IMG/VR virus record: IMGVR_UViG_3300031419_000581
Source of the DNA: a virus
Taxonomy: Duplodnaviria; Heunggongvirae; Uroviricota; Caudoviricetes
DNA: 26,981 nt
Strand: one strand, 5' to 3'
The position numbers and the translations under genes are program-made. The stretch's first letter is position 1, and each line of letters opens with the position of its first letter. The notes beneath the pieces are model-generated. The model was given only the letters and a program-made list of their open reading frames with translations. It did no database searches and had not been told where the DNA came from. Below, in pieces: positions 938-26,981 of this stretch.

Positions 938-1642
938 ATGTTTTTGTTTTATTTTAAAAAGTTTAAAGCAGCAGAAAGAAGAGTAAATAAGATTGATAAA
1001 GATATGAATAAAAAAACAAACTCTATCTGGAAGACTAAAAAAATATCAATTCTCTACATGCTTTTTATTTTTTGCGTTGGCATGTTTTCAGCCACTCTTT
1101 CAGAAGGGATAATCTTTGCCTCATGCCTGTTGTTGGTCTTTCTGACAACAAATACAATTGCTAAAACATATTATTATTTCCTGTTTAAAATTTTCAGGAA
1201 AAGGATATGGAAACTTTATATAAAAGGCAAATTTCACGAAAGTTTCAGCTATTACAGTTTCCTGAGTGGTAATGCGTTTTTTTTATTTAATGTTCAGCCA
1301 GTATACAGGATGGCTGATATGCTTAATATTGTTATTGTATCTTCAGTCATTCAATTCATGGGAAAATCATTTGATATGATATCTTATATCACTATTGTCT
1401 TCATGTTATTTATATCAATCACACATATGAGATTATCAATAAAATCACTACAAGATATAGCATTAAATTATGTTGATAATTCCTGGATTAATAACCTCAT
1501 GCATTCTGATAAGCAAGTATCTTTGAAAAGAGAAAGATGGCAAGCTTATATAGCTCTTAAAGAAAAAATATATTTGGATAATCCGAATGGTATCATTGAA
1601 AAAGAAAAATCTGAAAATATATCCAAAACAAACAGATTATAA
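938..1642 (+). CDS. Multi-pass membrane hypothetical protein with C-terminal ...KTNRL tag
   Basis: ORF track; GAGGG RBS before the ATG; about 4 hydrophobic segments. Confidence 0.75.
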   Translation: MFLFYFKKFKAAERRVNKIDKDMNKKTNSIWKTKKISILYMLFIFCVGMFSATLSEGIIFASCLLLVFLTTNTIAKTYYYFLFKIFRKRIWKLYIKGKFHESFSYYSFLSGNAFFLFNVQPVYRMADMLNIVIVSSVIQFMGKSFDMISYITIVFMLFISITHMRLSIKSLQDIALNYVDNSWINNLMHSDKQVSLKRERWQAYIALKEKIYLDNPNGIIEKEKSENISKTNRL

Positions 1643-1649
1643 CTTTTTT

Positions 1650-1677
1650 TTGACAATTTTTAGAAAAATGCTACCAT
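1650..1677 (+). promoter_or_regulatory. Sigma70-like promoter for the SIMPL gene
   Basis: TTGACA (1650-1655), 16 nt spacer, TG-c-TACCAT extended -10 (1672-1677). Confidence 0.6.
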
Positions 1678-1700
1678 TTTTAAAAATTAAGGAGGTTATT

Positions 1701-2438
1701 ATGAAAAAAAATATAATGTTATCACTTGCTGGGATTATAACACTTTCTCTAATGGGAAATTCGGTATATGCAGAAGATAACCTTTATAATCAAGTCAATC
1801 TATCTGCAAATGGTGAAACGTCCATAGAACAGGATTTTCTGACTATTAACTTATCCTATGAGACGGATGGAAGCAACAATAAGCAAGTACAGGAAAACTT
1901 AACCAAGAAATTAAATGATTCAATATCTGATATAAAAACCCAAATAAAAAATCATGACTTCACCGTAAAAATGGGAAGATTCTCTGTATATCCACAATAT
2001 AATAATTCAACCATAAGTGGCTGGCATGGTGTAGCAACTATTATAATGGAAGGTAAAGATTTTCCTGCAATAAGCAATGCGGCTTCTTCTGTAAAAGATT
2101 TTACAATTCAATCAACCAGTTTTTCAGTTAGTCCAGAAAAAATAAGTGAACTAAAAGATAAGACTGTAACAAAAGCCATTGAAAAATTTAAAGAGCAAGC
2201 GCAGAAAGTTTCAAAAGACTTCGGATTTAATCAGTATAAAATTAAGGCAGTCAATGTTTCTTATGATGAACAAGGCGCAATGCCTGTTTTCAGAACAATG
2301 ATGAATGCACAAGCACCTATGGCAGTATCTGCTAAAGAATCAACACCTGTTGATTTTGAAGCAGGGAAAACAACAATTCGTGCAAGTGTGGATGGTAGTA
2401 TTGTTATGTATGGTAATAATGAAGCTATTCAGGAATAA
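1701..2438 (+). CDS. SIMPL (DUF541, YggE/BP26-like) periplasmic protein
   Basis: The likely true start is 1701 (AAGGAGG RBS), not 1587. Signal peptide MKKNIMLSLAGIITLSLMGNSVYA. SIMPL-type motifs: VNLSANGETSIEQDFLTINLS, FSVSPE...AIEKFKEQAQ, FEAGKTTIRASVDGSI. Confidence 0.85.
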   Translation: MKKNIMLSLAGIITLSLMGNSVYAEDNLYNQVNLSANGETSIEQDFLTINLSYETDGSNNKQVQENLTKKLNDSISDIKTQIKNHDFTVKMGRFSVYPQYNNSTISGWHGVATIIMEGKDFPAISNAASSVKDFTIQSTSFSVSPEKISELKDKTVTKAIEKFKEQAQKVSKDFGFNQYKIKAVNVSYDEQGAMPVFRTMMNAQAPMAVSAKESTPVDFEAGKTTIRASVDGSIVMYGNNEAIQE

Positions 2439-2455
2439 AATAAATAATTGAAATG

Positions 2456-2485
2456 AAAAAGCAGAAGTCGTTTCTGCTTTTTTTT
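2456..2485 (+). terminator. Intrinsic terminator after the SIMPL gene
   Basis: AAAAGCAGAA-gtcgt-TTCTGCTTTT followed by a T-run. Confidence 0.8.
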
Positions 2486-2570
2486 ATCTTTTCAGGAAAA
2501 AAAATTGACAAAAACTCATATCTGAAGAGATTATACAGAGTTGTAAATACTAACGGAGAATTAAAAAATT

Positions 2571-3506
2571 ATGTTTAAAAATTTACTCATATTTCAAATG
2601 AAAGAAGATTTTTCTATTTCAGATACCGACCTTAGATCAAAAATGGCTGAATTTGCATTCAGAAAATGTGGAGCAACTGATATTAAATCATCTGGCTGGG
2701 TTTCTCCGGTCAAAGGTTCAGAAGAGCTGTGCTATTTTTCTAACGGGCATATGCTTCTGACCATTATGACAGAAGATAAAATTCTTCCTTCCACAGTTGT
2801 AAAAGAAGAAATGGAAGCAAAAATTGAGAAACTTGAAGAAGCTCAAGGTCGTAAACTGAAAAAAGCAGAGAAAGATACGATTAAAGACGAAGTCATTCAA
2901 TCTCTTCTTCCACGTGCTTTCAGTAAGTACAGTACCCTGTCTATCTGGATAGATAGTGGTAAAAAGAGAGTGCTTGTAGAAGCGTCAAGTTCCAAGAAAG
3001 CAGAAGATGCTCTGGCTCTGTTGCGTAAAACGTTAGGTTCGCTGCCAGTTTCTCCTTTCACAACCAACAGTCCGATTGAATATACTCTGACTGAGTGGGT
3101 AAAATCAGGTCAGCCAAGTGAAGGTTTTGAAGTTCTGGATGAAGCAGAACTTAAAGATATGATGGAAGAAGGTGGTGTACTGCAGAGCAAAAAACAGGAT
3201 CTGTCCAGTGAAGAAATTCAGAACCATATTGAAGCAGGTAAGCAGGTTACTAAACTTATGCTTAACTGGAAAGGTAAAGGTGAAAGCGATGATAAAATCA
3301 ATTTCCTTCTTTCAAATGACGGCTCACTGAAAAAAATAAAAATGTCAGATGTATTAAAAGATAAGAATTCTGATATTGATAAAGATGATTTTGCTCAGCG
3401 TTTTGATGCAGATTTTGTTCTGTTTGCTGGTGAAGTTTCTATGTTGGTCTCTGATATCCTGGAAGCTTTTGTGGGTTCGGAAGCAGAACAATCAGAAGCA
3501 GAATAA
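2571..3506 (+). CDS. rdgC: Recombination-associated protein RdgC
   Basis: Family hallmarks: MFKNL, GWVSP, EDKILPSTVV, GRKLKKAEKDTIKDEVIQSLLPRAFS, ALLRKTLGSLPV, FDADFVLFAGE. Confidence 0.95.
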   Translation: MFKNLLIFQMKEDFSISDTDLRSKMAEFAFRKCGATDIKSSGWVSPVKGSEELCYFSNGHMLLTIMTEDKILPSTVVKEEMEAKIEKLEEAQGRKLKKAEKDTIKDEVIQSLLPRAFSKYSTLSIWIDSGKKRVLVEASSSKKAEDALALLRKTLGSLPVSPFTTNSPIEYTLTEWVKSGQPSEGFEVLDEAELKDMMEEGGVLQSKKQDLSSEEIQNHIEAGKQVTKLMLNWKGKGESDDKINFLLSNDGSLKKIKMSDVLKDKNSDIDKDDFAQRFDADFVLFAGEVSMLVSDILEAFVGSEAEQSEAE

Positions 3507-3526
3507 TTCAAAAAATAAGGTTATAT

Positions 3527-3551
3527 AAAAAGAGGCTTACGGCCTCTTTTT
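3527..3551. terminator. Bidirectional intrinsic terminator between rdgC and the convergent ORF
   Basis: AAAAAGAGGC-ttacg-GCCTCTTTTT, with an A-run on one side and a T-run on the other. Confidence 0.85.
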
Positions 3552-3553
3552 AT

Positions 3554-4384
3554 TTAAATTCTTGATCTCTTTTGTAATGATTTTTCAACAGAAGGAGGAA
3601 ACTGAGAAAATAAAACATTTCTCTCATAATTCGTCTGAATGACTGCTTTCATGTCACCCCTCATTCGTAAGTTAATCTCACAAAAAGCTTCGAACTGAGA
3701 ATGTATAAAATCTTTCTGAATATATTTAAGCTGTAATCCGCCATTAGAAATAGTATCAAGATATTTTAAAGTATCAAGAAAAGAACTGTTAATAGGACTT
3801 TCCATTAGGTTATTTTCTTTATCGTTGCAAATTATTCTATTCCCTTCAAAATCCAGAGCCATTTTATGAACGCCTTTTTCAACAAAAGCATCGTGTATGT
3901 TAATAAAAAAATATGAAAACATTTCAATATTAGCTTTTTCAGAATGATAACGCATTGACTGAAGTGTATCTTCAAGTTCTTCAAAACGTGTGTCACTCAT
4001 AGTTTTTTTAAATTCATTGACATAATAATTTTCTATATCCGCAACATTTTTCCATTGAATTTTTTCGTGGTTAGACAAATCCCCTGATTCGTTCAACAAA
4101 CCATTAATCGTATCCTTATAATAGGGTTCCATCTTTTCACAATCAAATAAGGATAACATACGGCTGTCGATATCCCGACAATCTAATGTTTGCTGAAAAA
4201 CAGTTGAAATAGAAGATGCATTTTTAGGTAGAGTGAGATAGGCTAAATCATCATCAGGTTTATTGACTAAAATATCATGCGCGACATAAGTAATGAGTTC
4301 AAGCATATTTTCACGAACCTTTTCTTTTAACTGCGCTGCAATTTTTATATTATCCACATTCGAAGTGTCAAAATTTAATATCAT
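3554..4384 (-). CDS. Hypothetical protein with C-terminal ...KRSRI tag
   Basis: 276 aa ORF; GAGG RBS upstream; ends at the bidirectional terminator. Confidence 0.75.
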   Translation of the reverse strand: MILNFDTSNVDNIKIAAQLKEKVRENMLELITYVAHDILVNKPDDDLAYLTLPKNASSISTVFQQTLDCRDIDSRMLSLFDCEKMEPYYKDTINGLLNESGDLSNHEKIQWKNVADIENYYVNEFKKTMSDTRFEELEDTLQSMRYHSEKANIEMFSYFFINIHDAFVEKGVHKMALDFEGNRIICNDKENNLMESPINSSFLDTLKYLDTISNGGLQLKYIQKDFIHSQFEAFCEINLRMRGDMKAVIQTNYERNVLFSQFPPSVEKSLQKRSRI

Positions 4385-4684: not shown

Positions 4685-6232
4685 ATGATTAAAATAATAA
4701 GAGAGATTGCCGATGATATAGAAACCCAAAATAATTTGGTTGATATAAAAATAAAGATAAGCAACTTATTGAAAAATGTGTCTTTGGATAAAAATAAATT
4801 TATAAGTCTATCAACGGAAAATTATGTTTTACCAGCATACTGGATAAATTTTTTGGTCGAAAATAAAGAATATAAAATGGCCTTTGATTTACTTAATAAT
4901 TATGAATTTATTTTCGGTGAAGATATGCGCCGCTCATATGATGGAAAAAATTCTCTGGTGCGAAAAATTGCATACAAAAATTCATTTAAAGACCATGAAT
5001 TTTTTAAATTTATTCTAATGAACAATCCAGATATTTTAGCAGAAAATAAAAACAATCATAATAAGTTTGAAGCAATCCGATATGGCGTGAAGCATTATGA
5101 TTTGAGAGGCAACAAAGGCTGTGGAGATATTTATAAATCTTTGTTTAATTATTTCGAATCAAATAGTGAAATAAAAGAGATTACCGAAGAGAAAATATCC
5201 GATTATAAGTATTCCTTTAATATTATTCATAAATTATCAATTGAAAATAATTGGCCAAGTATACATCCTGATTTGTGGCATTACAGAAATTATGTAACAA
5301 AAAAAGAAGGGATACCTTTATTAACATTGATATTGCAAAATTGTTCTTATGACGGATTCGGTGAATATTTCAGAATGAGTGTTGAAGATGATCCAGAAGA
5401 TATTAGTAGATTAAATAAAACAATAGAGTTAATTGGTGGAAATATAAATAAATTAAAAACAAGATCTCTTGCCGTTTTTATGAATAATATGATCGAAAAA
5501 TTAAGTTTTAAAGATTACCTAAATACAGAAAGTATTATAAAAAAATATTTGATTAATCCAATAAACTTATTAAAGGAGTTAACAGAAGAACATTATGAGG
5601 AACAAAATTTAAATGATAAAAATTTAAAAAATAATAGTCTTCATATTTTAAACAAATCAACTGTTGAAAAATGTGATGTTAATTCCGAAGGATATATCGA
5701 TCCTACAAATGTTATCAGTAAACTGAATTATTTACTGGATTTGTCAAAAGAAAATAATCATTATTCAAATGAAAACATGTTAAGTATTATTTTTTGTTAT
5801 ATTAATAAATTTGATTATCCCATGTCTGGTGCAGCATTTAATATTAAAATGCAAATAGAAAAAGAAATGATAGTAAGAAATTTTGAAAATATATTGTGTG
5901 GCTATATGGATTTATTAAAAGATAAAGATATATTTGAGTCTAATCATGAATTGAATAAAAAAAATATAGTAATGTTATTACAGAAAAATTTATTAATTGT
6001 TGATTCAAAAATACTTACAGATTTTATAATAGCAACAAAATTGTTTGAGATCGATGTGGAAAGCATGTTTGAAGAAATCAATCAGGACAGACAAAAAATT
6101 TCTAATTTTATGAGAGAGCATATGAATAGTAATAGAGCAATAATAGAAAAATTAAATAAAGAAGCTGAGAGAAAATGTATAAAAAGTAAATTAGATGAAT
6201 CTTATGAAAGAAGGAAAGTAAAAAGATTATAA
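4685..6232 (+). CDS. Hypothetical helical protein with C-terminal ...KVKRL tag
   Basis: 515 aa ORF; AAGGA RBS; very AT-rich; no recognisable domain. Confidence 0.8.
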   Translation: MIKIIREIADDIETQNNLVDIKIKISNLLKNVSLDKNKFISLSTENYVLPAYWINFLVENKEYKMAFDLLNNYEFIFGEDMRRSYDGKNSLVRKIAYKNSFKDHEFFKFILMNNPDILAENKNNHNKFEAIRYGVKHYDLRGNKGCGDIYKSLFNYFESNSEIKEITEEKISDYKYSFNIIHKLSIENNWPSIHPDLWHYRNYVTKKEGIPLLTLILQNCSYDGFGEYFRMSVEDDPEDISRLNKTIELIGGNINKLKTRSLAVFMNNMIEKLSFKDYLNTESIIKKYLINPINLLKELTEEHYEEQNLNDKNLKNNSLHILNKSTVEKCDVNSEGYIDPTNVISKLNYLLDLSKENNHYSNENMLSIIFCYINKFDYPMSGAAFNIKMQIEKEMIVRNFENILCGYMDLLKDKDIFESNHELNKKNIVMLLQKNLLIVDSKILTDFIIATKLFEIDVESMFEEINQDRQKISNFMREHMNSNRAIIEKLNKEAERKCIKSKLDESYERRKVKRL

Positions 6233-6899: not shown

Positions 6900-8072
6900 A
6901 TGAATAGATTAAATGAATTATACCAAGACGTATTTACAGGCAATTATGTCCTTTCACGTAATGACAGAAGAGATAACTTTGATAACGCATTAAAAAATAT
7001 TATCCCAGAAGGTGAACAACAGATTAGTCAGTTAAAGCAAATAATGGATAAGGTAATAATAGATAATCCAGACATAAAAGAAGGTTATACCAATAGAATG
7101 AGTTTTTCGGCATTTTTGATAAAAAATACGCAATTACCTAAAGAAATAATAGAACATGTTATTAAGAAGCATAAAATCAAGTTAAACTCAAAAAGTGGTT
7201 TAGATAAAGATTATTTTGTAGATTATATGCTTGGCGAAGATACAAGGGCAGTTAAAACAAAAGATCTCCCTTTAATGGCAGAGAGATTTATGCTCGCAAC
7301 AGAGCTTGGCTTTAAACATAAAGTAAGTGAGAAAAGCAAAGGTAGTCTTTATTACACTTTAAGCAAGAGACGTATACTGTCTGAGTTATCGCTTTCAGAA
7401 ATAGACAAGTATATGCGTTGTTTTACAGAAAATGAAATTTATCCTAAAGATAAAACGGGTTTTACCTATGTGGATAGTTTGGCAAAAATAATCACAGATT
7501 ATCAAAAGGATGATAAAAGAGAAAAAATGCAGGCATTACTGAATCCATTTATCGAGGCAGGTTTTATCAAAGTGCCAGAAAACGTCAAAGATTATAGTTA
7601 TGCTGGAAAAATGTTAACGGATATGTTAAATGTCGAAAGAAAAAGTCTGCAAGACGGAGAATACGATAAACTGGTTGAAAATATTTTGTCACTGAATTTA
7701 GGGGAAGATAAACGAAAAGCATTTATAAATTTTGTGGTTATGCACCTTGTAGAAACGCCCAGTTTTGTAGCAATTTCAGGGGATGAGATAATCAGTAAAA
7801 TAAACTATTATATTAATCATAATTTGGGTAAAGACGAACAAAAAATTTTAAAATCAGCACTTGAAGAATTCAGAAATGAAAAAATAGCATTAATTAAAAG
7901 TATTCCAGGCTTTGAAAATATGACAGACGAAGAAATAAAAAATAATGGTAGTCTGAGAATATTGAAAGAAACAATGGATAATGCTTTTGTCTTAATAGAT
8001 AAAGAAGCGTTATTACAAAGTATAGGTGAGTTTGAAAATAAAACAGAGCAATCTAAAAAGAACAGGATATAA
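6900..8072 (+). CDS. Hypothetical protein with C-terminal ...KKNRI tag
   Basis: 390 aa ORF; AGGA RBS; terminator directly downstream. Confidence 0.8.
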   Translation: MNRLNELYQDVFTGNYVLSRNDRRDNFDNALKNIIPEGEQQISQLKQIMDKVIIDNPDIKEGYTNRMSFSAFLIKNTQLPKEIIEHVIKKHKIKLNSKSGLDKDYFVDYMLGEDTRAVKTKDLPLMAERFMLATELGFKHKVSEKSKGSLYYTLSKRRILSELSLSEIDKYMRCFTENEIYPKDKTGFTYVDSLAKIITDYQKDDKREKMQALLNPFIEAGFIKVPENVKDYSYAGKMLTDMLNVERKSLQDGEYDKLVENILSLNLGEDKRKAFINFVVMHLVETPSFVAISGDEIISKINYYINHNLGKDEQKILKSALEEFRNEKIALIKSIPGFENMTDEEIKNNGSLRILKETMDNAFVLIDKEALLQSIGEFENKTEQSKKNRI

Positions 8073-8107: not shown

Positions 8108-8380
8108 TTACCATGGATTATCAAATTCGCCGTCCCATTCTTTCCAGATACCCGAGCAATACTTAATTTTTTCTCCTGTCATTCGATTAACAAACCCATA
8201 AATCTGAAATTCAGTAACAGCTTGTCCTGAAATAACATTGGGGCCTGATCGAGGTCCGGCAGTATTACTAAAGCTATACGGCCATGAATAAAAAGAGAGT
8301 GTGCCTTCATGTGCATTAATATGCTGACAGGCAAGAGATTTAATTTCGTCAAAAGTAAGCTTGTCTTTTTTATGATTCAC
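8108..8380 (-). CDS. Small hypothetical protein (phage/plasmid type)
   Basis: The ORF track gives 8108-8395 with a TTG start. A better start is GTG at 8380, 7 nt after GAGGAG. WPYSFSNTAGP...GQAVTEFQ resembles a motif I recall from phage hypothetical proteins (unverified). Confidence 0.65.
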   Translation of the reverse strand: MNHKKDKLTFDEIKSLACQHINAHEGTLSFYSWPYSFSNTAGPRSGPNVISGQAVTEFQIYGFVNRMTGEKIKYCSGIWKEWDGEFDNPW

Positions 8381-8463
8381 GGTGATACTCCTCAATTAGT
8401 ATAGAGAGATATGTTATCACAGAAAGAACAGAAGAATCTACTGTATTTAGAAAAAAACGAGTT

Positions 8464-8515: not shown

Positions 8516-9355
8516 ATGGAAAAGAAAGATGATAAATTAAATCTTATTTCAAGAAACAGTTTGAACAAGTTTTACAATATGGTCAGAACTGATTATATGA
8601 GAGATAAGAAAGCATTATCAAACAAAGTGATTGAGTATGTAATAAATGTTAGTGAAGCAGTATGGGAAAAAATGTTAAATAAACTGGATCCTGTTGATCT
8701 TGAAATGCATCGTTATGATAAAATGGAAAAGAATCTGACTGACAGGACATTTAAAATATGGCATGAGAAAAACCGAATTGCAGATGAGTATTTAGGTTAT
8801 CTGTTTTTTGCTCAAAGTTATTTTAATGGTGGTAACGCACAGGAACAATATAAAGTTGCAAAGAGAATGGGTTTATATGAACCGACATTAAATAATGAAG
8901 ATAATTTTATTTATGATTATGCAGTGAAGACAGAGAAAGTTTATTATCTTCTTGGTCTTTCGGATAAAGAATTAGCTTATAAAGGAATATATAAAATAGA
9001 AAAAGATTTGAGTACATATAGCGACGTTATGGAGTATGTAGAAAGATGGGAGACTAATATGGCTCTCAGTGAAAAAGATATGAATAATATGGATGTTATC
9101 CAAAGATTAATTACAACAGATAATGCGGGTTTTATTTTTGACAGTGAAATGGTCTTAAAAATATTACTGCGTAATGATTATAATTTTTTTCAGCCGGATT
9201 TAAGTTTTTATGAAGAAATGACGAATGAAGAATTTAAAAAACGAGTAGAGGACGATCCTAAGCAAAAAGAATATCTTGCATTATATCAGAAGAAAAAATT
9301 AACAGAGAAAGTGCAGGGAGAAATTAAACCTTCTTCCCCTATAAACAGACTATAA
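8516..9355 (+). CDS. Hypothetical protein with C-terminal ...PINRL tag
   Basis: 279 aa ORF with promoter, RBS and terminator. Confidence 0.8.
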   Translation: MEKKDDKLNLISRNSLNKFYNMVRTDYMRDKKALSNKVIEYVINVSEAVWEKMLNKLDPVDLEMHRYDKMEKNLTDRTFKIWHEKNRIADEYLGYLFFAQSYFNGGNAQEQYKVAKRMGLYEPTLNNEDNFIYDYAVKTEKVYYLLGLSDKELAYKGIYKIEKDLSTYSDVMEYVERWETNMALSEKDMNNMDVIQRLITTDNAGFIFDSEMVLKILLRNDYNFFQPDLSFYEEMTNEEFKKRVEDDPKQKEYLALYQKKKLTEKVQGEIKPSSPINRL

Positions 9356-9357
9356 AT

Positions 9358-9386
9358 AAAAGAGCTTCCTTCGTGGAAGTTTTTTT
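9358..9386 (+). terminator. Intrinsic terminator
   Basis: AGCTTCC-ttcgt-GGAAGTT followed by a T-run. Confidence 0.65.
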
Positions 9387-9429
9387 ATAGCGATGTTATA
9401 CTATCCTCTTATATAAAGAGAGTGAGACT

Positions 9430-17058: not shown

Positions 17059-18951
17059 ATGCTGAATAAAAACGTAAAACCCCAGGATATTCCTGAAAGT
17101 TTAAAAAGTATTTTGAGATTAAATGGAAAACATCATGATACGAAAAGAAGTATGTTTATGAAAGCTGTTTATGATGATAACCGAGAAAAACTGTCGGTAT
17201 TTTTTGATAAAGCCAAAAAAGAAAATGTAAATTTGTTTAATTATATCTATGATCGTAATATTTCAGTCATTGATATGTTACTTACAGGTAATAACAGTCA
17301 TGTACATAAAAAGATTATGGCTAAATATAAAAATGAAGAAGATGGTGATTATATAAAAATAAGAGAAGAATATTGGGATTCAAGAATAGATTATCTTAAA
17401 GAACATGGATTTGATTTATTTTCAAAACAAGTAATAATGATCAGTGAAAGAGAGGAAGATTTTATTGTTAAGCAACCAGAGTCATTGTTTGAAATTTTAA
17501 ATAATGTCAGTGGAGGGGAACAAATTGAGTTAGTGGAAGCTTATTTTACAGATAATGAAATTAGGAATGTAATTAATCTGGTAAAAGAAGAAAAGATAGA
17601 AAAAGATCAGCTAATAGAATATATCAAAAATAATATAAGTTATTATAATGATAATATAATGGGTTCTTTATGTAAGGAGCTAACGGATAATCATCTATTG
17701 ACGGAACATTTTTTCAAACTGCCAGTTTATACAATAATTTCATTACATGAACAGGGATACGTGGATTTCTATGAACAAATGAAAAAGGTAGATAGTATAA
17801 CGCCGGATATCGTAAAATTTTCACAGGCAATACTTGAAAGTAAATTTGAAGAATCGCGTTATACTGATTTTTTACTTCACCTTTATGAAACAGTTAACTG
17901 GAGTTTTGAAGAAATAAATACCATGATAGTATGTCCTGCAGACCAATTGCTTAATTGTGAATATACGGAAGATCAGTTTGGTTTCATTCATAGATATAGT
18001 GATTCTGAATATAGCGGGATAAATGAGTATTTTTGTTCTTACAGGGAAAAGATTGAGCATTTTCAGGAGAAATATCCGTCTCTTATTTTTCATTTTAATC
18101 TGGACAAAGAAATTGAGTTCAATCGTTTTGCCTGTCTGACAGGGCTATTTATTGATTATAAAAATCATGTAAATAATGACATTGATATCAGAAAAAAATT
18201 ATCAGAAATGGGTATTTCTGTTCAGGAAGATATTATTTATTCCTCTTTATGTAAGGTTAAATCGGACAGTGATTCTCCTTATCCACGAAGAGTAGGTTAT
18301 TTTAATTCGATTTCGCGTAATAATGGAATGTATAATTTGAGCATTTCACCTGTGTTGTTCAATAAAATTATTAACAATTTTTTATCGCAGGAAGAAATAG
18401 ACGGTGTTTGTCATAAAATATCTTCCTTATACAATAATCATGAGACGGACTATGATGTGAAGAATAAAAAAATGATATCTTATGCTAAAAAATTGTCTTT
18501 TGTTAAATTTAAGGAATTTATAAATACAACACCTTCATTAATTGTTTCAGAGTTATTAGAAAAAGAATCAACGCTTTTACCTGAAGTGGTTCGTGCTTTA
18601 AAAGAAAGTAGTTCAACAGAGATGATACGGTATCTTGGTGAATTGCATTTACATAAAAAATCGCTGTCAGATAAAAGCTCCATCTTTTTTAAGTTTGACC
18701 AAAAGAAAGAAGAAACAGAAGAATTATTTTTGACGCTACTTTTAGTGAGTTATCCATTTTTAAAAGATGACGTAGAAAGAATTGAGAAAATAAAAGAAGA
18801 TTTTTATGATATGGGATTAAAGCTTGAAAACAGGATAGTAAAAAATCAGCAGAAAAAAGAGTTTTTAAACTTATTATTTGACCGCCTTGATTTAGAAAAG
18901 ATAACACAGTCGGTCTCACCTTTACAAAAAAGATCCATGACCAGAATATAA
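17059..18951 (+). CDS. Large hypothetical protein with C-terminal ...SMTRI tag
   Basis: The ORF track starts at 17011; ATG at 17059 just after the upstream stop is more plausible. It contains the ankyrin-like fragment IDYLKEHGFDLFSK. Confidence 0.75.
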   Translation: MLNKNVKPQDIPESLKSILRLNGKHHDTKRSMFMKAVYDDNREKLSVFFDKAKKENVNLFNYIYDRNISVIDMLLTGNNSHVHKKIMAKYKNEEDGDYIKIREEYWDSRIDYLKEHGFDLFSKQVIMISEREEDFIVKQPESLFEILNNVSGGEQIELVEAYFTDNEIRNVINLVKEEKIEKDQLIEYIKNNISYYNDNIMGSLCKELTDNHLLTEHFFKLPVYTIISLHEQGYVDFYEQMKKVDSITPDIVKFSQAILESKFEESRYTDFLLHLYETVNWSFEEINTMIVCPADQLLNCEYTEDQFGFIHRYSDSEYSGINEYFCSYREKIEHFQEKYPSLIFHFNLDKEIEFNRFACLTGLFIDYKNHVNNDIDIRKKLSEMGISVQEDIIYSSLCKVKSDSDSPYPRRVGYFNSISRNNGMYNLSISPVLFNKIINNFLSQEEIDGVCHKISSLYNNHETDYDVKNKKMISYAKKLSFVKFKEFINTTPSLIVSELLEKESTLLPEVVRALKESSSTEMIRYLGELHLHKKSLSDKSSIFFKFDQKKEETEELFLTLLLVSYPFLKDDVERIEKIKEDFYDMGLKLENRIVKNQQKKEFLNLLFDRLDLEKITQSVSPLQKRSMTRI

Positions 18952-19468: not shown

Positions 19469-19650
19469 GTTCAGTGATATACCTCCCCCTGAAGGAGGAG
19501 GCTTCAGATTAGTTTCCTGTTGAGGAAATTTCTTCTGAACTTTGCCTGTGTTTCCTGCGAAACGATAAAAAAGGCGTTTCAGTTGCGACCCATCCGGCCT
19601 GCAACGAGAGAATTCCTCTCTGATAAATATTTCTGGCTGCGTTATGGTCA
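19454..19650 (-). ncRNA. Predicted TnpB reRNA (right-end scaffold plus flank-derived guide); 5' boundary approximate
   Basis: TnpB guide RNAs are known to derive from the right end. Hairpins seen on the minus strand: GAGAG-gaatt-CTCTC, GTTGC...GCAAC, TTTCCT-caac-AGGAAA and the terminal right-end hairpin. The guide would begin TGAACTTATTTCCATT. Confidence 0.6.
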
Positions 19651-21176
19651 GCGTTGCAGGAAAACCCGCAGTCCTGACAGATAAATTTAGCCTGAGTTTT
19701 ACGGTTTTCCTCCGCAGTATAACTGCATTCAGAGCAGCGCTGGCTGGTATAGGCGGGATCGACTTTAACCACAAATCCCAGGTTGCGTCTGACCTTATAC
19801 TCCACCATATTATTGAACATGCCCCATGAAAGAGACAGTATGCGGCGATTGAGATCTCTTTTATCATAAAGGGATTTCAGCCACGGTTTTTCCAGCTGTC
19901 GCCGCTTTAACTTCTGCAGATAAACCGGGTCGGCATGCAGCCTTATGCGTCTTTCGCTCATGGTCATTTTTTTAACTTCAAGGTCTTCACGGATGACACA
20001 GGTGTGGTTTTTACCTATGTCGCACGAGACCTTATGCAAAAAGTCATTTTTTATGTTGGTGGCTTTTTCATAAAGTTTCGCTATGCGGGATTTAAGTCTC
20101 TGATACTGCTTTGAGATTTTCTGGTCAGGATTAATTTTTTTCTTTCTTTTGAAAACCTCATATTTGTGGCTGAGCTGCTTCTGCATGAAATTAATCCGGT
20201 CAGCTATCCATTTCAGTTTATCCCGCATTTTTTTACCGGGATGGAAGGGCTGACCCTGCTGGGTCATGATCATTTTACTGCAGCCGAGGTCATAGGCAAG
20301 GGTTTTCTCAGGAAGTACGTTATACAGGTTATCCTGCTGTTGCTGCTTTTCTTTGACAGTGAGGTTTCGTTCAACCTGTACGCTGACATAAATTTTTCTT
20401 CCTTTTCGGGTCAGGCTCAGCGTTTTAGGCATTTCATTTCGCTTCCATATCCTGTGAAAATTTAAAAAGAGTTTTTCCTTCGTGCCAGGAAGCCCAATCC
20501 ATCCTTCCTTCTTGCTGAACTTAAAAGAGGTAAGCTGTTTAAAAAAACACCTTTCGATATCAACACCTTTCTTTTTAAAGCGGGGCTTTCCTTTTTTTCC
20601 CTTTGCAAACTCAGCCATCGCGTCAGAGAGAAAGCGTAAAGTGGACTGTAGGGGCTGAGAGTGAGTATCGTTCAGAAAGTGAGAAACCTCATGGTCTTTA
20701 TTTTCACCCTGTTCATTACAGGCAGGGGTTTTCTTTAACTGCGTGAGCATTTTGCACATGTCCTGAAAGGACAGAAAGGTACGGAAGCCTTCTGGGATAT
20801 CCTGCTGGTTATCAATATAATTTTTTTTCAGCGTTTTCTGACTCTGATAAAAATCGTTAATTTTACCGAGAAAATAATTCCATACGAAACGCTGATTGCC
20901 AAAGGACCGTTCCAGATATAACCTCATTTTCTCTGAAATCCGGTCTTCCCGGACGCGAAAGCGATACGTGGTGATGAGAAGATCGGTTTTATCTTTCTCA
21001 CTCTGTCGCATCTTCTTTTTCCTGTCCGTACTTTCAGTCACCGAAACCTCACAAAATTATAGACTTAACAAAGCCAGAATAACAAAAATAAGTGAAACAT
21101 CAAGTGTTTAAACGGCAGGTTTTTAAGAAATCGTTATATCCCCGACCTGAAGGACGAGGCTTTACGGATTTGGTTG
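19474..21176 (-). mobile_element. IS200/IS605-family element, tnpB-only (non-autonomous), 1703 bp
   Basis: Minus strand left end: TTAC|CAACCAAATCCGT-AAAG-hairpin CCTCGTCC-TTCA-GGTCGGGG. Right end: GAAG-hairpin CCTCCTCC-TTCA-GGGGGAGG-TATA-TCAC|. The guide/cleavage pairs AAAG/TTAC and GAAG/TCAC follow the IS608 rules. The element is visibly more GC-rich than its flanks. There is no tnpA inside. Confidence 0.9.
19509..21041 (-). CDS. tnpB: RNA-guided endonuclease TnpB
   Basis: N-terminal HTH segment TYRFRV...FGNQRFVWNYFL; RuvC-I LAYDLG; RuvC-II IREDL; zinc finger CSEC/CQDC; RuvC-III NADHNAARNI; GTG start with GAGG RBS. Confidence 0.95.
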   Translation of the reverse strand: MTESTDRKKKMRQSEKDKTDLLITTYRFRVREDRISEKMRLYLERSFGNQRFVWNYFLGKINDFYQSQKTLKKNYIDNQQDIPEGFRTFLSFQDMCKMLTQLKKTPACNEQGENKDHEVSHFLNDTHSQPLQSTLRFLSDAMAEFAKGKKGKPRFKKKGVDIERCFFKQLTSFKFSKKEGWIGLPGTKEKLFLNFHRIWKRNEMPKTLSLTRKGRKIYVSVQVERNLTVKEKQQQQDNLYNVLPEKTLAYDLGCSKMIMTQQGQPFHPGKKMRDKLKWIADRINFMQKQLSHKYEVFKRKKKINPDQKISKQYQRLKSRIAKLYEKATNIKNDFLHKVSCDIGKNHTCVIREDLEVKKMTMSERRIRLHADPVYLQKLKRRQLEKPWLKSLYDKRDLNRRILSLSWGMFNNMVEYKVRRNLGFVVKVDPAYTSQRCSECSYTAEENRKTQAKFICQDCGFSCNADHNAARNIYQRGILSLQAGWVATETPFLSFRRKHRQSSEEISSTGN

Positions 21177-21724: not shown

Positions 21725-23311
21725 TTATATGCGTTTAATTTTTCGTGGTTCAATCTTAACTTTTTTTATGAAAGTAGAAATAAGTAAATCATTTTCAAGC
21801 AGGTATTTTTCACTTTGTGGTGTAAGAATCGGAGGTTCTCCTGTTTTCTTATTTGCATTTTCAGATAGGGTAGCAAACAAATTCTCCATTAAAGGTAAGA
21901 TTTTAGTTTTATCCAGTTTTCTGTCAAAAACATCTTCCATAAAATCACTGTAAGTAATGATAGATTTAATAATTTCATTTGAACACAGAGCAAAAGAGTC
22001 AGCAGACTTAGAAAAATTTGCGCCATGTTTTAACATAACTTCATTCATAGCATATACATGGAGAGACACCTCAAAATCCTGATTAGGGTAGTCTTTAAAA
22101 TACTGTTTAAATTCAGTTATGTTATTCTGAATAATCTTAAATGAATTTGAGTCAGGATATTCATACATATTGTCAAAAAAGAGTTTATGCACATTGGTAA
22201 GTTTATCTTGGAATATCCATGATTTATCTATGGATTCCAGAGACATTCCCTTTTTAATACGGTATTCTAAAATGGCATGCTGCATTTTAGGCGAAACAGC
22301 CAGCCCAATTTGATTAAAAATATCCTGAAATTCTTTGATATAAAAATCAGAAACATCTTTTTTAATATAAACCAGAGATAACATTTCAAGATCAGTAATA
22401 TTTTCTTTCTTGTTTTTTATATAATAATACGCTTCTGCGAGTTCAAGAAAGCGACCATTCATGAGTTTTTTCTGTTCTTTACCCCGTTTTTTATCTGTAA
22501 AATAGACAGAGATATCTTCATGAAGGTAATTGCTGACATTATCAAATTGACACCAGCCTTTTTTCTTATTAAATGAAATAAAGCTGTCTTCGATCTGAAT
22601 GCCACAAGAATCCGTCTTTGCGAATTCTGGTTTTTGTGAATAGAGATACTTAAATAAGAAAGGTTTTTTATGTAAAATAGCATCAGAGAGTGCCCAGCCG
22701 GAGTAAAATTCCTGATTGTTTTCTCGTTCGGAAAAAACTTTTTCTTTACGTTGTTCATCGCTGATTAGAAATTCAAGAATCGCAATCTGTCCTTCTTTAA
22801 TAGCAAAATGGCTAAGATTATCAATAAGTTTCTTTTCGGAGATATTTAAATGCTTTAAAAGGGAAGACATATCTGCGTAGGCATTAGCAAAACTTTCATT
22901 AGCAAAAGCGTTATTTTGTAAATCAAGAGAATGGTAAAGCTGAAGTGTCTGATTTTTCATAAAGGCAAGTTTATAAAGTTTTAAGCTTTCAGTCATTTGA
23001 TACATTTCATTCAGAATATGATTAAAATCATTGTGAATGAAAACAGCACCCAGTATCTCAATAAGGTTTTCATTCTCTCTTTCTTTGATCATGATTGTAT
23101 CTGGTGAACTATTAAAAAAGAGAGCATTCTGTGCTGTGGTATGCAACACTGCCATATAATCAGAGACGAGCGAATGAACAGTAGAAGAATCAAGATTGTT
23201 TTCATTCTGCTGAACATATTCTACCAGTAAACGACCCTGTCGGGAAAGGGTGCGATTTTTTTCACTATAGTAATATGCGGAAGAATAGTTTTGTGCGTTT
23301 TTATCAATCAT
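21725..23311 (-). CDS. Hypothetical protein with two ankyrin-like repeats and C-terminal ...KIKRI tag
   Basis: 528 aa; NLSHFAIKEGQIAILEFLI and WALSDAILHKKPFLFKYLY fit the ankyrin helix-turn-helix pattern. Confidence 0.75.
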   Translation of the reverse strand: MIDKNAQNYSSAYYYSEKNRTLSRQGRLLVEYVQQNENNLDSSTVHSLVSDYMAVLHTTAQNALFFNSSPDTIMIKERENENLIEILGAVFIHNDFNHILNEMYQMTESLKLYKLAFMKNQTLQLYHSLDLQNNAFANESFANAYADMSSLLKHLNISEKKLIDNLSHFAIKEGQIAILEFLISDEQRKEKVFSERENNQEFYSGWALSDAILHKKPFLFKYLYSQKPEFAKTDSCGIQIEDSFISFNKKKGWCQFDNVSNYLHEDISVYFTDKKRGKEQKKLMNGRFLELAEAYYYIKNKKENITDLEMLSLVYIKKDVSDFYIKEFQDIFNQIGLAVSPKMQHAILEYRIKKGMSLESIDKSWIFQDKLTNVHKLFFDNMYEYPDSNSFKIIQNNITEFKQYFKDYPNQDFEVSLHVYAMNEVMLKHGANFSKSADSFALCSNEIIKSIITYSDFMEDVFDRKLDKTKILPLMENLFATLSENANKKTGEPPILTPQSEKYLLENDLLISTFIKKVKIEPRKIKRI

Positions 23312-23436
23312 GAGAGAAAGTCCTTTATAAAGATAGGATTATTATACTTAATTTTGAATTAAATAACAAGAAGAACAAGCTGTGATAATAATTGTTAAAA
23401 GTTATAATAAGATAAACAAATACAGAGATTACAACT

Positions 23437-24039
23437 ATGAATGAAGCAAGATTATTTACTTTTTTGCTGGAATCAAACTTTGACGAATTTAAAATAGCAA
23501 TAGAAAATGAAGTAATTCCGCTGGATTACAGATTTGAGGGAAGTGGTAGTGAACTTATTTTCATAAATGAGTTATCAAAAGAAAAAATGCGTTTATTGCT
23601 TGAAGCAGGTTCTAAAATTAATTCTAAGGTCAGATCCAGAACAGCATTTGATTTTATTCATTTGATAGAAGAATTTGCTTTATTAATGCAATATGACCAA
23701 AAGGAAGTAAAGAGTTTTTTAAAAGGTCAGTATGAAATGGAGCCTTATTTATATTATGATATTAGTATAATTGATTATATGTTTGAAAGCAAAATACTTA
23801 ATAAAGAAATACTCAATAAATCATATTATCATGGTTTAGCTTCATAAAGTACAAGAAATAAAGAAAAAATTGTTTATTTGTATGAAAAAGGCATGGATAT
23901 AGATGAAAAATTTATGGCAATTTTATTACAAAGTAACCGAGATTTGCATGATTTTGTTAATGTTTATATTGAGAAAAAAAAGTTAGAGGAAAAATTAAGT
24001 AATAACAAAATGTTATCAAATGTCATAAAAAGGCTTTAA
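23437..24039 (+). pseudogene. Ankyrin-like gene interrupted by an in-frame TAA (23845-23847); the full frame ends ...VIKRL
   Basis: The same frame continues for 63 codons after the stop: STRNKEKIVYLYEKGMDIDEKFMAILLQSNRDLHDFVNVYIEKKKLEEKLSNNKMLSNVIKRL, then TAA at 24037-24039. Confidence 0.75.
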
Positions 24040-24209: not shown

Positions 24210-24698
24210 ATGAATAAAAATTTTATGTTAACTTTAATGATGTTATTGTTAAGCGTGTTAGCTACTGTAATGCTGGGAGGATTTATTGCCATTAACATGC
24301 TTTATCCGACTCATTTAGATAAAAAAGCAAGTGCTACGAATGAGTATTTATATCAAAATATTACTAAACTTGATGATTTATATAGAGAATCAGGCTATGA
24401 AAGTGTTAAAGGAAAAATAGAAAAAGACATGGCATTTATCAGGCATGAAAATATACAATTCAAAGATAATAAAGAAATTACTGATACAAAAGATAAAAAC
24501 TATATTGCAGTAAGTGATGAAGGAATTCATTTTAATACAGAAAAATCGAGTTGCTTATTAATCATGAGAAAAACTACTGTATTAAAAAATAAAATGTTTA
24601 TTAATGGAAATGCAAAAGAATCTGCGGTTGGTGAAGATTGCAATAAGTCAGGATTATTTGAAGCCAGAATTTTGTTTAGTGATCTTAAAAGTGAATAA
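24210..24698 (+). CDS. Membrane-anchored pilin-like protein (paralog of 19013-19468)
   Basis: Likely start 24210 (GGAG RBS; ORF track gives 24171); N-terminal hydrophobic helix; Cys pair. Confidence 0.65.
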   Translation: MNKNFMLTLMMLLLSVLATVMLGGFIAINMLYPTHLDKKASATNEYLYQNITKLDDLYRESGYESVKGKIEKDMAFIRHENIQFKDNKEITDTKDKNYIAVSDEGIHFNTEKSSCLLIMRKTTVLKNKMFINGNAKESAVGEDCNKSGLFEARILFSDLKSE

Positions 24699-24733
24699 TA
24701 TCTATATTATGGTTCATAATTTTTAGAAATAAG

Positions 24734-25444
24734 GTGATTAAAATGCTTTCTTTTTCTTATGTTAAACAAAAGATTAATCCTATGGAAAATAATGATTCAG
24801 GTTATATACAGATTATGTTGTTGGTTGTCATGTCAGTATTAATTGCTATGGATAAGCCTGAATTTTTCATGATACTATGCGGTATTTTTCTGAGTTTTTT
24901 TTGTTTCTATTTATGGATATGTGGTAAACAAAAAAAATATATAGTTGATATGTTAAAAGCAGAGAATCAAGAAGAAGCTTATTCCAGTTATGTTTATCTG
25001 AAATATATGGTGCATGAAAAGGGTTTCTTTTCTTCTTTTTTCAGTTTTTTACAACTGTGTTTTATGGGATGTCTTAATTTAAAAACAGATAATAATATTT
25101 TGAAAATAAATAGTTTTCAGAGTTTAAAAATTGCTCTGTTTTCATGGTCAGATAGTTCGTATATGTTGCTTCTTAACTGGGGAGTCTTATTTGTTTTTGC
25201 TGCTGCTTTTTACCTGCTGTACAGAAACATTAAACCGCATTTATATTATAGAAAAAGTCAGCCTATTGTTCAGGACGATGCTATCTTGCTATCAAAATAC
25301 AACGGTCTTTACGTGGAAGAAGATAAGTGTTTTGAAAAATTCAGAGAACTGGCAGCGGAGCAAAAAGCCAGTGAAGAGAGGACAATACTTTCTGAGTTAG
25401 CGGAAGTGAAATGTGAAAAAACAAGAACAATAAAAAGGTTATAA
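24734..25444 (+). CDS. Multi-pass membrane hypothetical protein with C-terminal ...TIKRL tag
   Basis: 236 aa (possible start at ATG 24743); about 4 hydrophobic segments. Confidence 0.75.
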   Translation: MIKMLSFSYVKQKINPMENNDSGYIQIMLLVVMSVLIAMDKPEFFMILCGIFLSFFCFYLWICGKQKKYIVDMLKAENQEEAYSSYVYLKYMVHEKGFFSSFFSFLQLCFMGCLNLKTDNNILKINSFQSLKIALFSWSDSSYMLLLNWGVLFVFAAAFYLLYRNIKPHLYYRKSQPIVQDDAILLSKYNGLYVEEDKCFEKFRELAAEQKASEERTILSELAEVKCEKTRTIKRL

Positions 25445-25516
25445 TATAAATAATATTATTCTGACAAAAAGAGAATAAACAATCGGATAACAATAAAGAT
25501 ATTCTTAAAAACAGGC

Positions 25517-25546
25517 TTGATTTATAGAAGGGTTCGCTGATATAAT
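25517..25546 (+). promoter_or_regulatory. Sigma70-like promoter for the nuclease gene
   Basis: TTGATT, 18 nt spacer, TG-a-TATAAT extended -10. Confidence 0.6.
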
Positions 25547-25577
25547 ATTATCATATTTTAAAGCGGAGGAAGTCTGA

Positions 25578-26498
25578 ATGAATAACATGAAAAAAGTTCT
25601 GGCAGTAGCAGGGATTGGTTTGGCAGCATTGAGTTTTAATGCAAGCGCATTTCATTTTGGTCTGGATAGCGTTGCAGGGTATGTAAAAGATAAAGTAGTT
25701 GAGAAGACCGTAGATTCGGCAAAAGATAAAATGTCTAATGTTGCCAGTTCTGGTAGCGAGGTGAGACCCAGTGCCGAGCATTGTAAGAGTTTAATGCCTT
25801 CGGGTTATCCAACTATGGCAGGTGATAACAATCTGGTTTATTTATGTCATCAGGGTTATGTGGTTGGTTATAATACTCAATATAAAACTCCTGCATGGGT
25901 TGCTGAATTGCTGACTCGTGAAAATCTTGATACAAAAAATGCAACACGTAATGATAATTTTCGTCCAGATCCGGCATTATTGAGGGCAAATGCTTCTGCG
26001 AGTGCTTCACTGTCAGATTATTCAGGTTCTTCTCGTGTAGGTCAGGGGTATGATCGAGGTCATATGGCACCAGCAGAAGATTTTCGTAAGTTCCCTGATC
26101 AAATGGACGAAAGTTTCTATTTGTCTAACATGGTTCCTCAGAATTCCAACAACAACCGTGGTGTATGGGCCGCACTGGAAAAGAACGTCCGTGACTGGGC
26201 TCAGCGTTATCAGGTCGCTGAGGTTGTAACCGGTTCAATTTATTACAATGGTCGTAGTCAGGGGAATTTAGGTAATATTGCAATTCCTACTCATTTATAT
26301 AAAGTTGTTTATCTGCCGACAAAAAATGAAGCTATGGCGTTTATTCTTCCTAATGCGCCGGTCGATAAATCAGCACTACCTCAGTATGCTATGTCTGTGT
26401 CTGATGCTGAAAAATTGACGGGTATGAAATTTTTCCCTGGTGTTTCAGACGCAGTAAAAGCTGTGAAGCCTGCTGATTTGAAAATTTTTAACCGCTAA
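25578..26498 (+). CDS. Exported DNA/RNA non-specific endonuclease (NucA/EndoG, His-Me finger)
   Basis: YDRGHMAPA catalytic motif, SFYLSNMVPQ, NRGVWAALE, IPTHLYKV; Sec signal peptide ending ASA. Confidence 0.92.
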   Translation: MNNMKKVLAVAGIGLAALSFNASAFHFGLDSVAGYVKDKVVEKTVDSAKDKMSNVASSGSEVRPSAEHCKSLMPSGYPTMAGDNNLVYLCHQGYVVGYNTQYKTPAWVAELLTRENLDTKNATRNDNFRPDPALLRANASASASLSDYSGSSRVGQGYDRGHMAPAEDFRKFPDQMDESFYLSNMVPQNSNNNRGVWAALEKNVRDWAQRYQVAEVVTGSIYYNGRSQGNLGNIAIPTHLYKVVYLPTKNEAMAFILPNAPVDKSALPQYAMSVSDAEKLTGMKFFPGVSDAVKAVKPADLKIFNR

Positions 26499-26531
26499 GT
26501 ATAAGTATAAGTATTATATATTAAGTCAGAT

Positions 26532-26560
26532 AAAAAAAGACCTCTTATGAGGTCTTTTTT
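26532..26560. terminator. Bidirectional intrinsic terminator
   Basis: AAAAAAAGACCTC-ttat-GAGGTCTTTTTT. Confidence 0.85.
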
Positions 26561-26586
26561 ATTGTCATTGATTATTGAAATTGCTA

Positions 26587-26981
26587 TTAAATTCGATTTG
26601 CTTTATTCGCTTTATTAACAGGGTTCCACATTTCCTTCATAGAAAATTGATATGAAAGATTAAACTTCTCATATAATGAACGGTCGTCGGAAGAAAGTGG
26701 TTTTTTAGTCAATACCTCTTCGAGTTTCTGGCTGTAATTATCGTGATAATCGATAATAGTTTCGATTATCTCTTTTTTATCTTCTTCGTTCAGGCGAAAA
26801 TCAGGATATAACTCTTGCATAATAATCACACCTTCATAGAGTGATTTTAATCTTTCAACAAAGGATTTCACATTATGTTCATGAGCAGGAAACCTGTTGT
26901 TATCCTCAGTTCTGAGTTTATCCATGTAATTATCCATGTATTCTCTAACAAGTGAACGATTTTTATCAAGATTTTCAGTAA
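26587..26981 (-). CDS. Hypothetical protein, 5'-truncated by the window edge, with C-terminal ...KANRI tag
   Basis: The frame stays open upstream of ATG 26937 to the window end (TENLDKNRSLVREY-MDNY...). Confidence 0.7.
   Translation of the reverse strand, partial: TENLDKNRSLVREYMDNYMDKLRTEDNNRFPAHEHNVKSFVERLKSLYEGVIIMQELYPDFRLNEEDKKEIIETIIDYHDNYSQKLEEVLTKKPLSSDDRSLYEKFNLSYQFSMKEMWNPVNKANKANRI

Follow-up and report, generated by a model that had tools for sequence, protein, structure and literature searches.

Conjugative type IV secretion systems (T4SSs) carry plasmid proteins into recipient cells (PMC8406263). The signals read by T4SSs are C-terminal and unstructured; those of type IVA (T4A) systems are basic, and type IVB (T4B) signals are marked by an E-block or by a hydrophobic residue at one of the three terminal positions (PMC10025392; PMC12981334; PMC5802825). 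Roughly one in three T4SS effectors contains transmembrane domains, and export of this class proceeds via an inner-membrane intermediate (PMC12981334). T4B machinery has recently been described for the pMEGA elements, conjugative plasmids of the Enterobacteriaceae with a size of 1.3-1.6 Mb and a GC content of 26-30%, which encode multicopy type IVb pilins with a shufflon, TnpB, phosphatases, methyltransferases, NAD/deacetylase enzymes and copies of ClpP and FtsH, with one clade containing more than 300 alpha-solenoid/ankyrin genes (Guitor et al., bioRxiv 10.1101/2025.09.30.679422). Table S8 of the same preprint lists RdgC and a sirtuin and, for pMEGA4, a Dot/Icm-type T4B secretion system (T4BSS) whose coupling protein is DotL-like and matches the Legionella coupling complex (7ovb), together with DotM-like (6exa) and IcmW-like (5xnb) proteins, DotN, DotB, DotD, DotI and an R64-like type IVb pilus (10.1101/2025.09.30.679422). 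Here, we analyse a stretch of DNA of 26,981 bp, from here on called the window (IMG/VR record IMGVR_UViG_3300031419_000581; 32% GC; about 29 credible coding sequences, CDSs), which probably derives from a giant plasmid of this kind. About one third of its genes, as in related tag-positive lineages, encode proteins that share a two-part C-terminal tag.

The first-pass annotation of the window had listed ten C-termini ending in R-L or R-I, and a re-reading of the CDSs returned the same endings (Table 1). These ten cases among 29 CDSs compare with an expectation of 0.64% per terminus, as computed from the amino-acid composition of the same proteins, and the suspected over-representation was thus borne out (binomial P = 1.9e-15). 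The effect is specific to the terminal position, because R-[L/I] dipeptides at internal positions of these proteins occur at 0.65%, which corresponds to the chance rate. Moreover, only three of 99 non-called open reading frames (ORFs) end in this manner. At the nucleotide level, the endings vary, with Arg encoded by AGA, AGG, CGC or CGA, Leu by TTA, CTA or CTT, and Ile by ATT or ATA. Since the codons differ synonymously, the constraint lies on the protein rather than on the DNA or RNA, and a DNA-level motif as the source of the shared ending was ruled out.

The terminal dipeptide forms the second part of a longer tag, which consists of an E-[K/R]-x-x-L block embedded in a helix and a disordered, basic linker free of acidic residues that leads to R-[L/I/M]-COOH. 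In the first set of loci, a block of the form [E/D]-[K/R]-x-x-[L/I/M/V] was present 12-32 residues before the end in 20 of the 23 tagged proteins, as opposed to two of 68 untagged ones (Fisher test, P = 6e-15). When the window was pooled with five related low-GC loci, yielding 36 tagged and 75 untagged proteins (36 of 111 genes), the corresponding fractions were 30/36 and 8/75, with the block mostly located at -21 to -24. The ten window tails carry it at -21 to -28, and the full motif spans -28 to -1. In the pooled set, position -2 is Arg in all 36 tails, position -1 is Leu (19), Ile (14) or Met (3), and position -3 is polar (N, K, S or T). The net charge of the last ten residues is +2.8 in tagged and +0.1 in untagged proteins, and the last six positions contain 0.03 and 0.68 acidic residues per protein, respectively. 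At least three K/R residues lie within the last eight positions in 64% of the tails. The linker comprises 12-20 residues and is flexible, variable in length and not conserved in sequence. An AlphaFold2 (AF2) model of the protein encoded at 8516 (tagged genes are named here by their first coordinate), built from 13 family members with a mean predicted local distance difference test score (pLDDT) of 86.6, shows an all-helical repeat protein whose last helix (residues 248-267) holds the block, followed by 12 disordered residues (268-279). A sorting signal of the sortase or exosortase type was considered and ruled out, since the segment that connects the block to the basic end is polar and does not form a transmembrane helix.

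Requiring both parts of the tag gives greater specificity than the dipeptide by itself. A methyltransferase-like gene at the left end of the window encodes a protein ending in KKC, and its ortholog in L019, a Logan contig, ends in KRM; neither carries the E-block, and the KRM ending is a chance occurrence of R-M.

The tail is retained in relatives whose bodies have diverged. L019 represents a syntenic but diverged relative of the window that contains orthologs of 13 window genes. Its five tagged orthologs are 34-60% identical to their window counterparts, as compared to 68-84% for RdgC, MYG1, SIMPL, the phosphatase, the methyltransferase, Sir2 and the pilin, and none of the five has lost the block or the terminal R-[L/I/M]. 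In one ortholog pair, the tail is shifted by an indel and the ending has been re-formed (PINRL versus NRQTRL). As a whole, the last 30 residues are conserved no better than the bodies (24-67% versus 35-62% identity). Because only the motif positions are held, the tag is best described as a short linear motif in a flexible linker rather than a folded domain. When the 8516 family was used as the query in an exhaustive profile search, eight remote representatives were recovered (E = 6e-26 to 9e-4), all of which carry the block and end in R-L, R-M, R-I or R-F. In the alignment of this family, whose 13 sequences are 15-91% identical to the query, only the column of the penultimate Arg is invariant, and it remains so even where the identity falls to 15-28%. 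A scan of the metagenome contigs of JGI and of IMG/VR with the same family found no relatives. The proposal that the tail acts as a selected, portable signal at the protein level is thus strongly supported by its position-specificity, by the unrelatedness of the bodies that bear it and by its retention in orthologs and remote homologs.

These data also bear on the trivial explanation that the shared ends reflect common descent or composition, in the form of a duplicated C-terminal module or of Lys/Arg-rich termini in an AT-rich genome, and have no shared function. AT-rich genomes do have Lys-rich termini, and endings of the form K-[hydrophobic] are somewhat over-represented in the loci studied. 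However, Arg is rare in these proteins (3.2-3.8%) and yet invariant at -2, the linker varies in length and is not conserved in sequence, the ending was re-created across an indel, and the E-block and the terminal dipeptide co-occur far beyond chance (P = 6e-15). We therefore regard this explanation as scarcely credible.

To determine how widely the tag is distributed, related low-GC loci were gathered through homologs of RdgC. Tagged genes account for 4 of 14 in L023 (28% GC), 10 of 21 in L025 (29% GC), 4 of 21 in L027 (26% GC; from a 325-kb contig) and 3 of 19 in L029 (26% GC; from a 336-kb JGI contig). None of the 41 genes in L020, located on a 1.34-Mb ENA scaffold, and its relative L028, located on a 221-kb ENA scaffold, is tagged, and no homologs of tagged proteins were found in these two loci. 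Chromosomal control loci from Vibrio and Psychromonas showed tagged endings in two of 212 cases, neither with the block. In an RdgC tree, all of these elements fall into one clade (100/100), apart from the chromosomal RdgC proteins of the Enterobacterales and Vibrio, and the tag-free L020/L028 lineage is nested among tagged ones. Judged by this gene tree, the tag looks ancestral and appears to have been lost or changed once. In L020/L028, seven of 41 proteins end in K-[hydrophobic], as against an expected 3.2% (P = 3e-4), although the loci are orthologous and the cases reduce to about four independent families; the tag-positive loci show such endings in nine of 111 proteins, with about 3% expected. 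The endings in L020/L028 may represent a relaxed or alternative tail or may simply be the Lys-rich termini of an AT-rich genome.

The bodies that carry the tag are unrelated to each other, as the first-pass annotation had assumed: among 13 tagged bodies, the best pairwise BLASTP match had an E-value of 0.025. Searches of the tagged and uncharacterised proteins against Pfam, PHROG and NCBIfam returned only sub-threshold matches and no family. The Atlas model of the 6900 protein resembles ARM, HEAT and ankyrin solenoids with a template-modelling score of about 0.5, and for the tagged proteins in general, Atlas models compared by Foldseek gave a generic likeness to alpha-solenoids and no specific fold. 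Tagged ankyrin proteins are present in L018, L023, L025 and L029. The 938 and 24734 proteins are polytopic, with strongly hydrophobic helices (mean Kyte-Doolittle score of 2.2-2.4 over 19 residues) and tagged tails of ~50 residues, which, according to the positive-inside rule, are predicted to face the cytoplasm. No recognisable enzyme, pilin or protein with a Sec signal bears the tag, consistent with the initial assessment. Signal-peptide-like N-termini were seen in 13 of 48 untagged and one of 21 tagged proteins, a trend, though not a proof, that tagged proteins tend to do without Sec signal peptides. Judged from their sequences, the tagged proteins thus comprise fast-evolving helical-repeat and ankyrin proteins, orphans and some membrane proteins, a cargo that looks effector-like.

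Several neighbouring genes deserve mention in this context. In its listed form, the SIMPL gene shares 56 nt with the tagged gene at 938. Because its ortholog in L019 starts later, with a signal-peptide-like N-terminus (MKK...) and a total length of 249 residues, the start of the window gene probably lies at an internal ATG, and the gene product is probably exported. The TnpB gene sits exactly at a break in synteny: an ENA contig (k141_70121; L018) matches the window from TnpB onward (~19.5-26.9 kb) and contains different tagged genes upstream. A TnpB-associated rearrangement may shuffle tagged genes. In L025, genes for SocA/Panacea antitoxin-like, Macro-domain and NADAR proteins (L025:4655-5089, 8975-9601 and 330-1559) lie among the tagged genes, which hints at conflict functions based on ADP-ribosylation.

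The element that carries the window probably belongs to the pMEGA-like giant plasmids, judged by gene content, GC content and RdgC clade rather than by direct comparison with pMEGA sequences. Like pMEGA, the window has a low GC content and encodes type IVb pilins with a shufflon, TnpB, a sirtuin, RdgC, phosphatases, methyltransferases and solenoid/ankyrin proteins, although its GC content differs from that of pMEGA4 (26%). Its RdgC clusters (100/100) with those of low-GC contigs of 120 kb to 1.34 Mb. A search of the plasmid collection PLSDB and of E. coli genomes, which do not include the named pMEGA genomes, gave no match to the window except for the chromosomal rdgC at 68%. DNA of the window was encountered in metagenomes from the phyllosphere, food, the rhizosphere and plants, and part of it in isolate runs, with no RNA data set among the sources listed; runs from the cassava-leaf phyllosphere are among the hits of the pMEGA preprint (10.1101/2025.09.30.679422). 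The term "C-terminal" is absent from the main text of that preprint, and in the supplementary text, it appears only in structure titles and annotation notes and never refers to a shared tail.

Given this setting, the tail is best explained as a translocation signal for a Dot/Icm-type T4BSS that would serve as the conjugation or secretion machine of the element, a reading to which we give even chances. Because a single dipeptide anchored by its carboxylate is found on many unrelated cytoplasmic and inner-membrane proteins, the tail points to one cytoplasmic reader protein. This reader would be the cytoplasmic coupling complex of the type IVB machine. The last helix of a tagged protein would present the E-[K/R]-x-x-[L/I] block, whereas the flexible linker would allow the free R-[L/I/M]-COOH to reach a binding pocket, after which the channel would take over the protein and deliver it to a recipient bacterium or, perhaps, to a eukaryotic cell. 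We infer the presence of a T4BSS on this replicon as well as the receptor, the channel and the destination, with the link to a T4BSS drawn by analogy with the pMEGA relatives. The tail contains the hydrophobic residue within the last three positions that is typical of IcmSW-class signals (Leu, Ile or Met at -1 in 36 of 36 tails), lies within the C-terminal 20-35 residues, as expected of T4B signals, and has the net positive (+2.8), Arg-containing and, in the AF2 model, disordered terminus characteristic of T4A signals. The two tagged membrane proteins also fit this reading, because transmembrane effectors use an inner-membrane intermediate. Signals of other secretion systems were set aside: those of type I systems are ill-defined or linked to RTX repeats, those of type III systems are N-terminal, those of type VI systems are non-linear, and type IX systems recognise an 80-residue domain after Sec export.

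A number of points weigh against a T4BSS signal. The Glu-rich ExxE block located ~10-17 residues from the end of T4B substrates is not seen, the tag having but one conserved acidic residue, located between -21 and -28. With this single residue and its net basic character, the tail matches no described T4SS signal, and an invariant penultimate Arg at a free C-terminus is not a known T4SS feature. No gene for a T4SS, a coupling protein or an adaptor was found in the window and the ten fetched loci, and the T4BSS link rests on a preprint about relatives rather than on this replicon. The tag-free L020/L028 lineage, if equivalent to pMEGA clade 2, is reported to keep a similar T4SS region (10.1101/2025.09.30.679422). 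A substrate load of one third of all genes would be unprecedented. Finally, strict anchoring by the alpha-carboxylate would be just as typical of a degron or a docking peptide, and the elements carry their own ClpP and FtsH.

This last point leads to the main rival of a secretion signal, according to which an AAA+ protease or unfoldase, such as ClpXP, FtsH or Lon of the host or the element, recognises the tail as a degron or as a tethering peptide. Tagged proteins could either be kept short-lived or, as helical-repeat binders, dock on the protease and deliver bound targets. Bipartite degrons exist, with the ssrA tag combining an adaptor part and a ClpX part, and FtsH attacks membrane proteins starting at their cytosolic tails, a mode of action that would fit the two tagged proteins of this type. 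In addition, the carboxylate-anchored R-[L/I/M] following a basic stretch recalls the ClpX C-motif-2 degron of MuA, RRKKAI (PMC12723719), and related elements encode ClpP and FtsH copies (10.1101/2025.09.30.679422). However, it would be odd if one third of all genes, and the fast-evolving accessory genes in particular, encoded unstable proteins; MuA-type degrons contain nothing equivalent to the conserved E-[K/R]-x-x-L block, which lies in a helix at a fixed distance; and the tail differs from RRKKAI at -2 and -3. We consider this explanation unlikely, if worth serious attention. In a more far-reaching version, which we think improbable, the tail would plug hundreds of fast-evolving helical-repeat binders into one AAA+ machine, such that targeted degradation or remodelling could reprogramme or disarm each new host.

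Alternatively, the tail could be a docking peptide for another intracellular partner, for example, a chaperone, an adaptor, a scaffold or compartment belonging to the element, or a loading factor for pili or vesicles, a possibility that we regard as doubtful. One invariant terminal dipeptide on many unrelated bodies again implies a single reader, and free-carboxylate peptides are typical ligands of PDZ-, TPR- and ARM-type readers. The weak top matches of a tagged solenoid in Foldseek searches include armadillo repeats with bound (KR)n peptides, making contacts between solenoids and tails in trans conceivable. On the other hand, no candidate reader was found, an adaptor-like fold was not apparent in a pair of acidic proteins encoded in the window, and no compartment or capsid genes were seen. 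These acidic proteins are tandem paralogs of ~200 residues with 28% identity and very acidic C-termini, whose genes are followed by that of an uncharacterised 490-residue protein; a pair of an acidic and a large protein recurs in L029 (10001-12126). As candidates for IcmS/W-like adaptors, the paralogs were dropped, given an AF2 model with a pLDDT of 67, no PDB match with E < 0.03 and no family.

If tagged proteins do reach eukaryotic cells, their tails could act as targeting signals there, either as peroxisomal targeting signals of type 1 (PTS1) or as nuclear localization signals (NLSs). The sequence x-R-[L/I/M]-COOH overlaps a loose PTS1 consensus, and ends such as KKRL, RRRL and KVKRL look like short basic NLSs. 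However, a PTS1 calls for S, A or C at -3, where 19 of the 36 tails have N or K and just six have S or A, and 14 tails end in Ile. An NLS need not be terminal, yet the terminus is invariant here. Moreover, polytopic bacterial membrane proteins are among those tagged, and related elements reside in enterobacteria from plants, food and guts. We judge this option very improbable.

Two of the ten tagged genes turned out to differ from their initial description. The KANRI tail at 26587 was confirmed, whereas the proposed complete gene at 26587-26937 is in fact the 3' end of a 522-residue CDS that runs off the window. At 23437, where the first-pass annotation had read through a stop codon, the EKKKL...VIKRL tail is present, but the in-frame TAA recurs in a second, independent ENA assembly (L018:7860-8462). 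The tail thus belongs either to a 53-residue ORF or to a broken gene, and the locus is either a two-part gene or a recent pseudogene. Apart from these loci, a small antisense ORF between two tagged genes is called in two other assemblies; it encodes 90-95 residues with the C-terminal sequence ...CSG-WKEWDG... and belongs to no family. Scans of the window for tRNAs and Rfam families gave no matches.

Table 1. Tagged genes of the window and neighbouring features mentioned in the text (aa, amino acids; block positions are counted from the C-terminus).
Feature	Position	Strand	Block and C-terminus	Counterpart elsewhere
Methyltransferase-like gene	22-609	+	ends KKC	L019:1418-2197
Tagged CDS, 234 aa, polytopic membrane protein with predicted cytoplasmic tail	938-1642	+	EKIYL at -26, ends KTNRL	L019 ortholog EKMSL...KTNRL, 54% identity
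SIMPL gene	1587-2438	+		L019 ortholog
Tagged CDS, 276 aa, orphan	3554-4384	-	ERNVL at -23, ends KRSRI	Ortholog EKNIL...SPRI, 60% identity
Tagged CDS, 515 aa, orphan	4685-6232	+	ERKCI at -21, ends KVKRL	Ortholog EKEIL...KISRI, 34% identity
Tagged CDS, 390 aa, alpha-solenoid-like	6900-8072	+	DKEAL at -24, ends KKNRI	Ortholog EREML...LNRM, 42% identity
Small antisense ORF	8108-8395	-		L019:9565-9837
Tagged CDS, 279 aa, helical-repeat protein	8516-9355	+	QKKKL in last helix, ends PINRL	Ortholog EKENL
Acidic paralog 1	14002-14637	+		
Acidic paralog 2	14760-15365	+		
Uncharacterised protein, 490 aa	15579-17051			
Tagged CDS, 630 aa, orphan	17059-18951	+	DRLDL at -23, ends SMTRI	
TnpB gene (OrfB_IS605 / Cas12f-like TNB)	19509-21041	-		
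Tagged CDS, 528 aa, orphan	21725-23311	-	EKYLL at -28, ends KIKRI	
Split or read-through tagged gene: 136-aa ORF, in-frame TAA (23845-23847), 53-aa ORF (23878-24039)	23437-24039	+	EKKKL at -22, ends VIKRL	L018:7860-8462
Tagged CDS, 236 aa, four-helix membrane protein with predicted cytoplasmic tail	24734-25444	+	ERTIL at -22, ends TIKRL	
Tagged CDS, 3' part of 522 aa, running off the window	26587-26981	-	EKFNL at -27, ends KANRI	Full gene L018:11010-12578

The discovery of giant low-GC plasmids in E. coli, Salmonella, Citrobacter and their relatives is recent, and of the more than 1,000 genes on such plasmids, most lack an explanation. In the tag-positive lineages, the rule E-[K/R]-x-x-L, ~20 residues, R-[L/I/M]-COOH picks out about one third of the genes as a single class that would be read by one receptor. 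If this reader were a Dot/Icm-like coupling complex, the tagged proteins would constitute the largest repertoire of type IV substrates known, and the tag would be the first consensus signal to be cleanly defined for a type IVB system. Both would reside on a conjugative element instead of in an intracellular pathogen. The question of what megaplasmids do to their hosts and recipients would then turn into a testable list, and the tail could serve as a short, portable tag for protein delivery. If, instead, the reader were a protease or an adaptor, the finding would be at least as unusual.

Among the known systems, the Dot/Icm signals of Legionella and Coxiella invite the closest comparison. They comprise an E-block read by DotM, a hydrophobic end of the IcmSW class and an FxxxLxxxK motif read by LvgA. 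Similar to these signals, the tag is confined to the last 20-35 residues of unrelated, fast-evolving proteins, often of the ankyrin or solenoid type and including transmembrane ones, and it combines an upstream Glu-containing block with a hydrophobic residue at the very end. However, the E-blocks of Legionella are Glu-rich and bind basic patches on DotM, whereas the tag has only one conserved acidic residue in a net basic tail, an invariant Arg at -2 and strict terminal anchoring. Its carrier is, moreover, a conjugative plasmid-like element of free-living hosts of the enterobacterial type rather than an intracellular pathogen. With the substrates of VirB/VirD4 systems, such as VirF, VirE2 and VirE3 of Agrobacterium with their Arg motif or the Bep proteins of Bartonella, whose tails are thought to be read by the coupling protein, the tag shares a basic, unstructured and Arg-containing extreme C-terminus. 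These T4A signals, by contrast, follow a loose charge pattern and have neither a fixed terminal dipeptide nor an E-[K/R]-x-x-L helix block, and the machinery of the relatives was reported to be of the T4B type. The analogy with the basic tails of Agrobacterium drawn in the first-pass annotation thus holds for charge but not for form.

Outside secretion, the C-motif-2 degron of MuA resembles the tag in its basic stretch and its terminal aliphatic residue at a free C-terminus, but it has other residues at the preceding positions (K-A-I, as opposed to N or K at -3 and the invariant R at -2), lacks the additional helix block and marks a few regulated substrates instead of one third of the genes of an element. 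PTS1, with the form [S/A/C]-[K/R/H]-[L/M]-COOH, is similar in that its terminal tripeptide is basic at -2 and aliphatic at -1; unlike in PTS1, position -3 of the tag is mostly N or K, the proteins concerned are bacterial and in part polytopic membrane proteins, and the E-block is without a counterpart. Literature searches for a secretion signal with a penultimate Arg or for a tail motif of megaplasmids returned nothing relevant. Collectively, as far as can be judged from sequence features, the tag behaves like a type IV signal, combining the terminal hydrophobic residue of T4B substrates with the basic, flexible tail of T4A substrates, but belongs to no class described to date.

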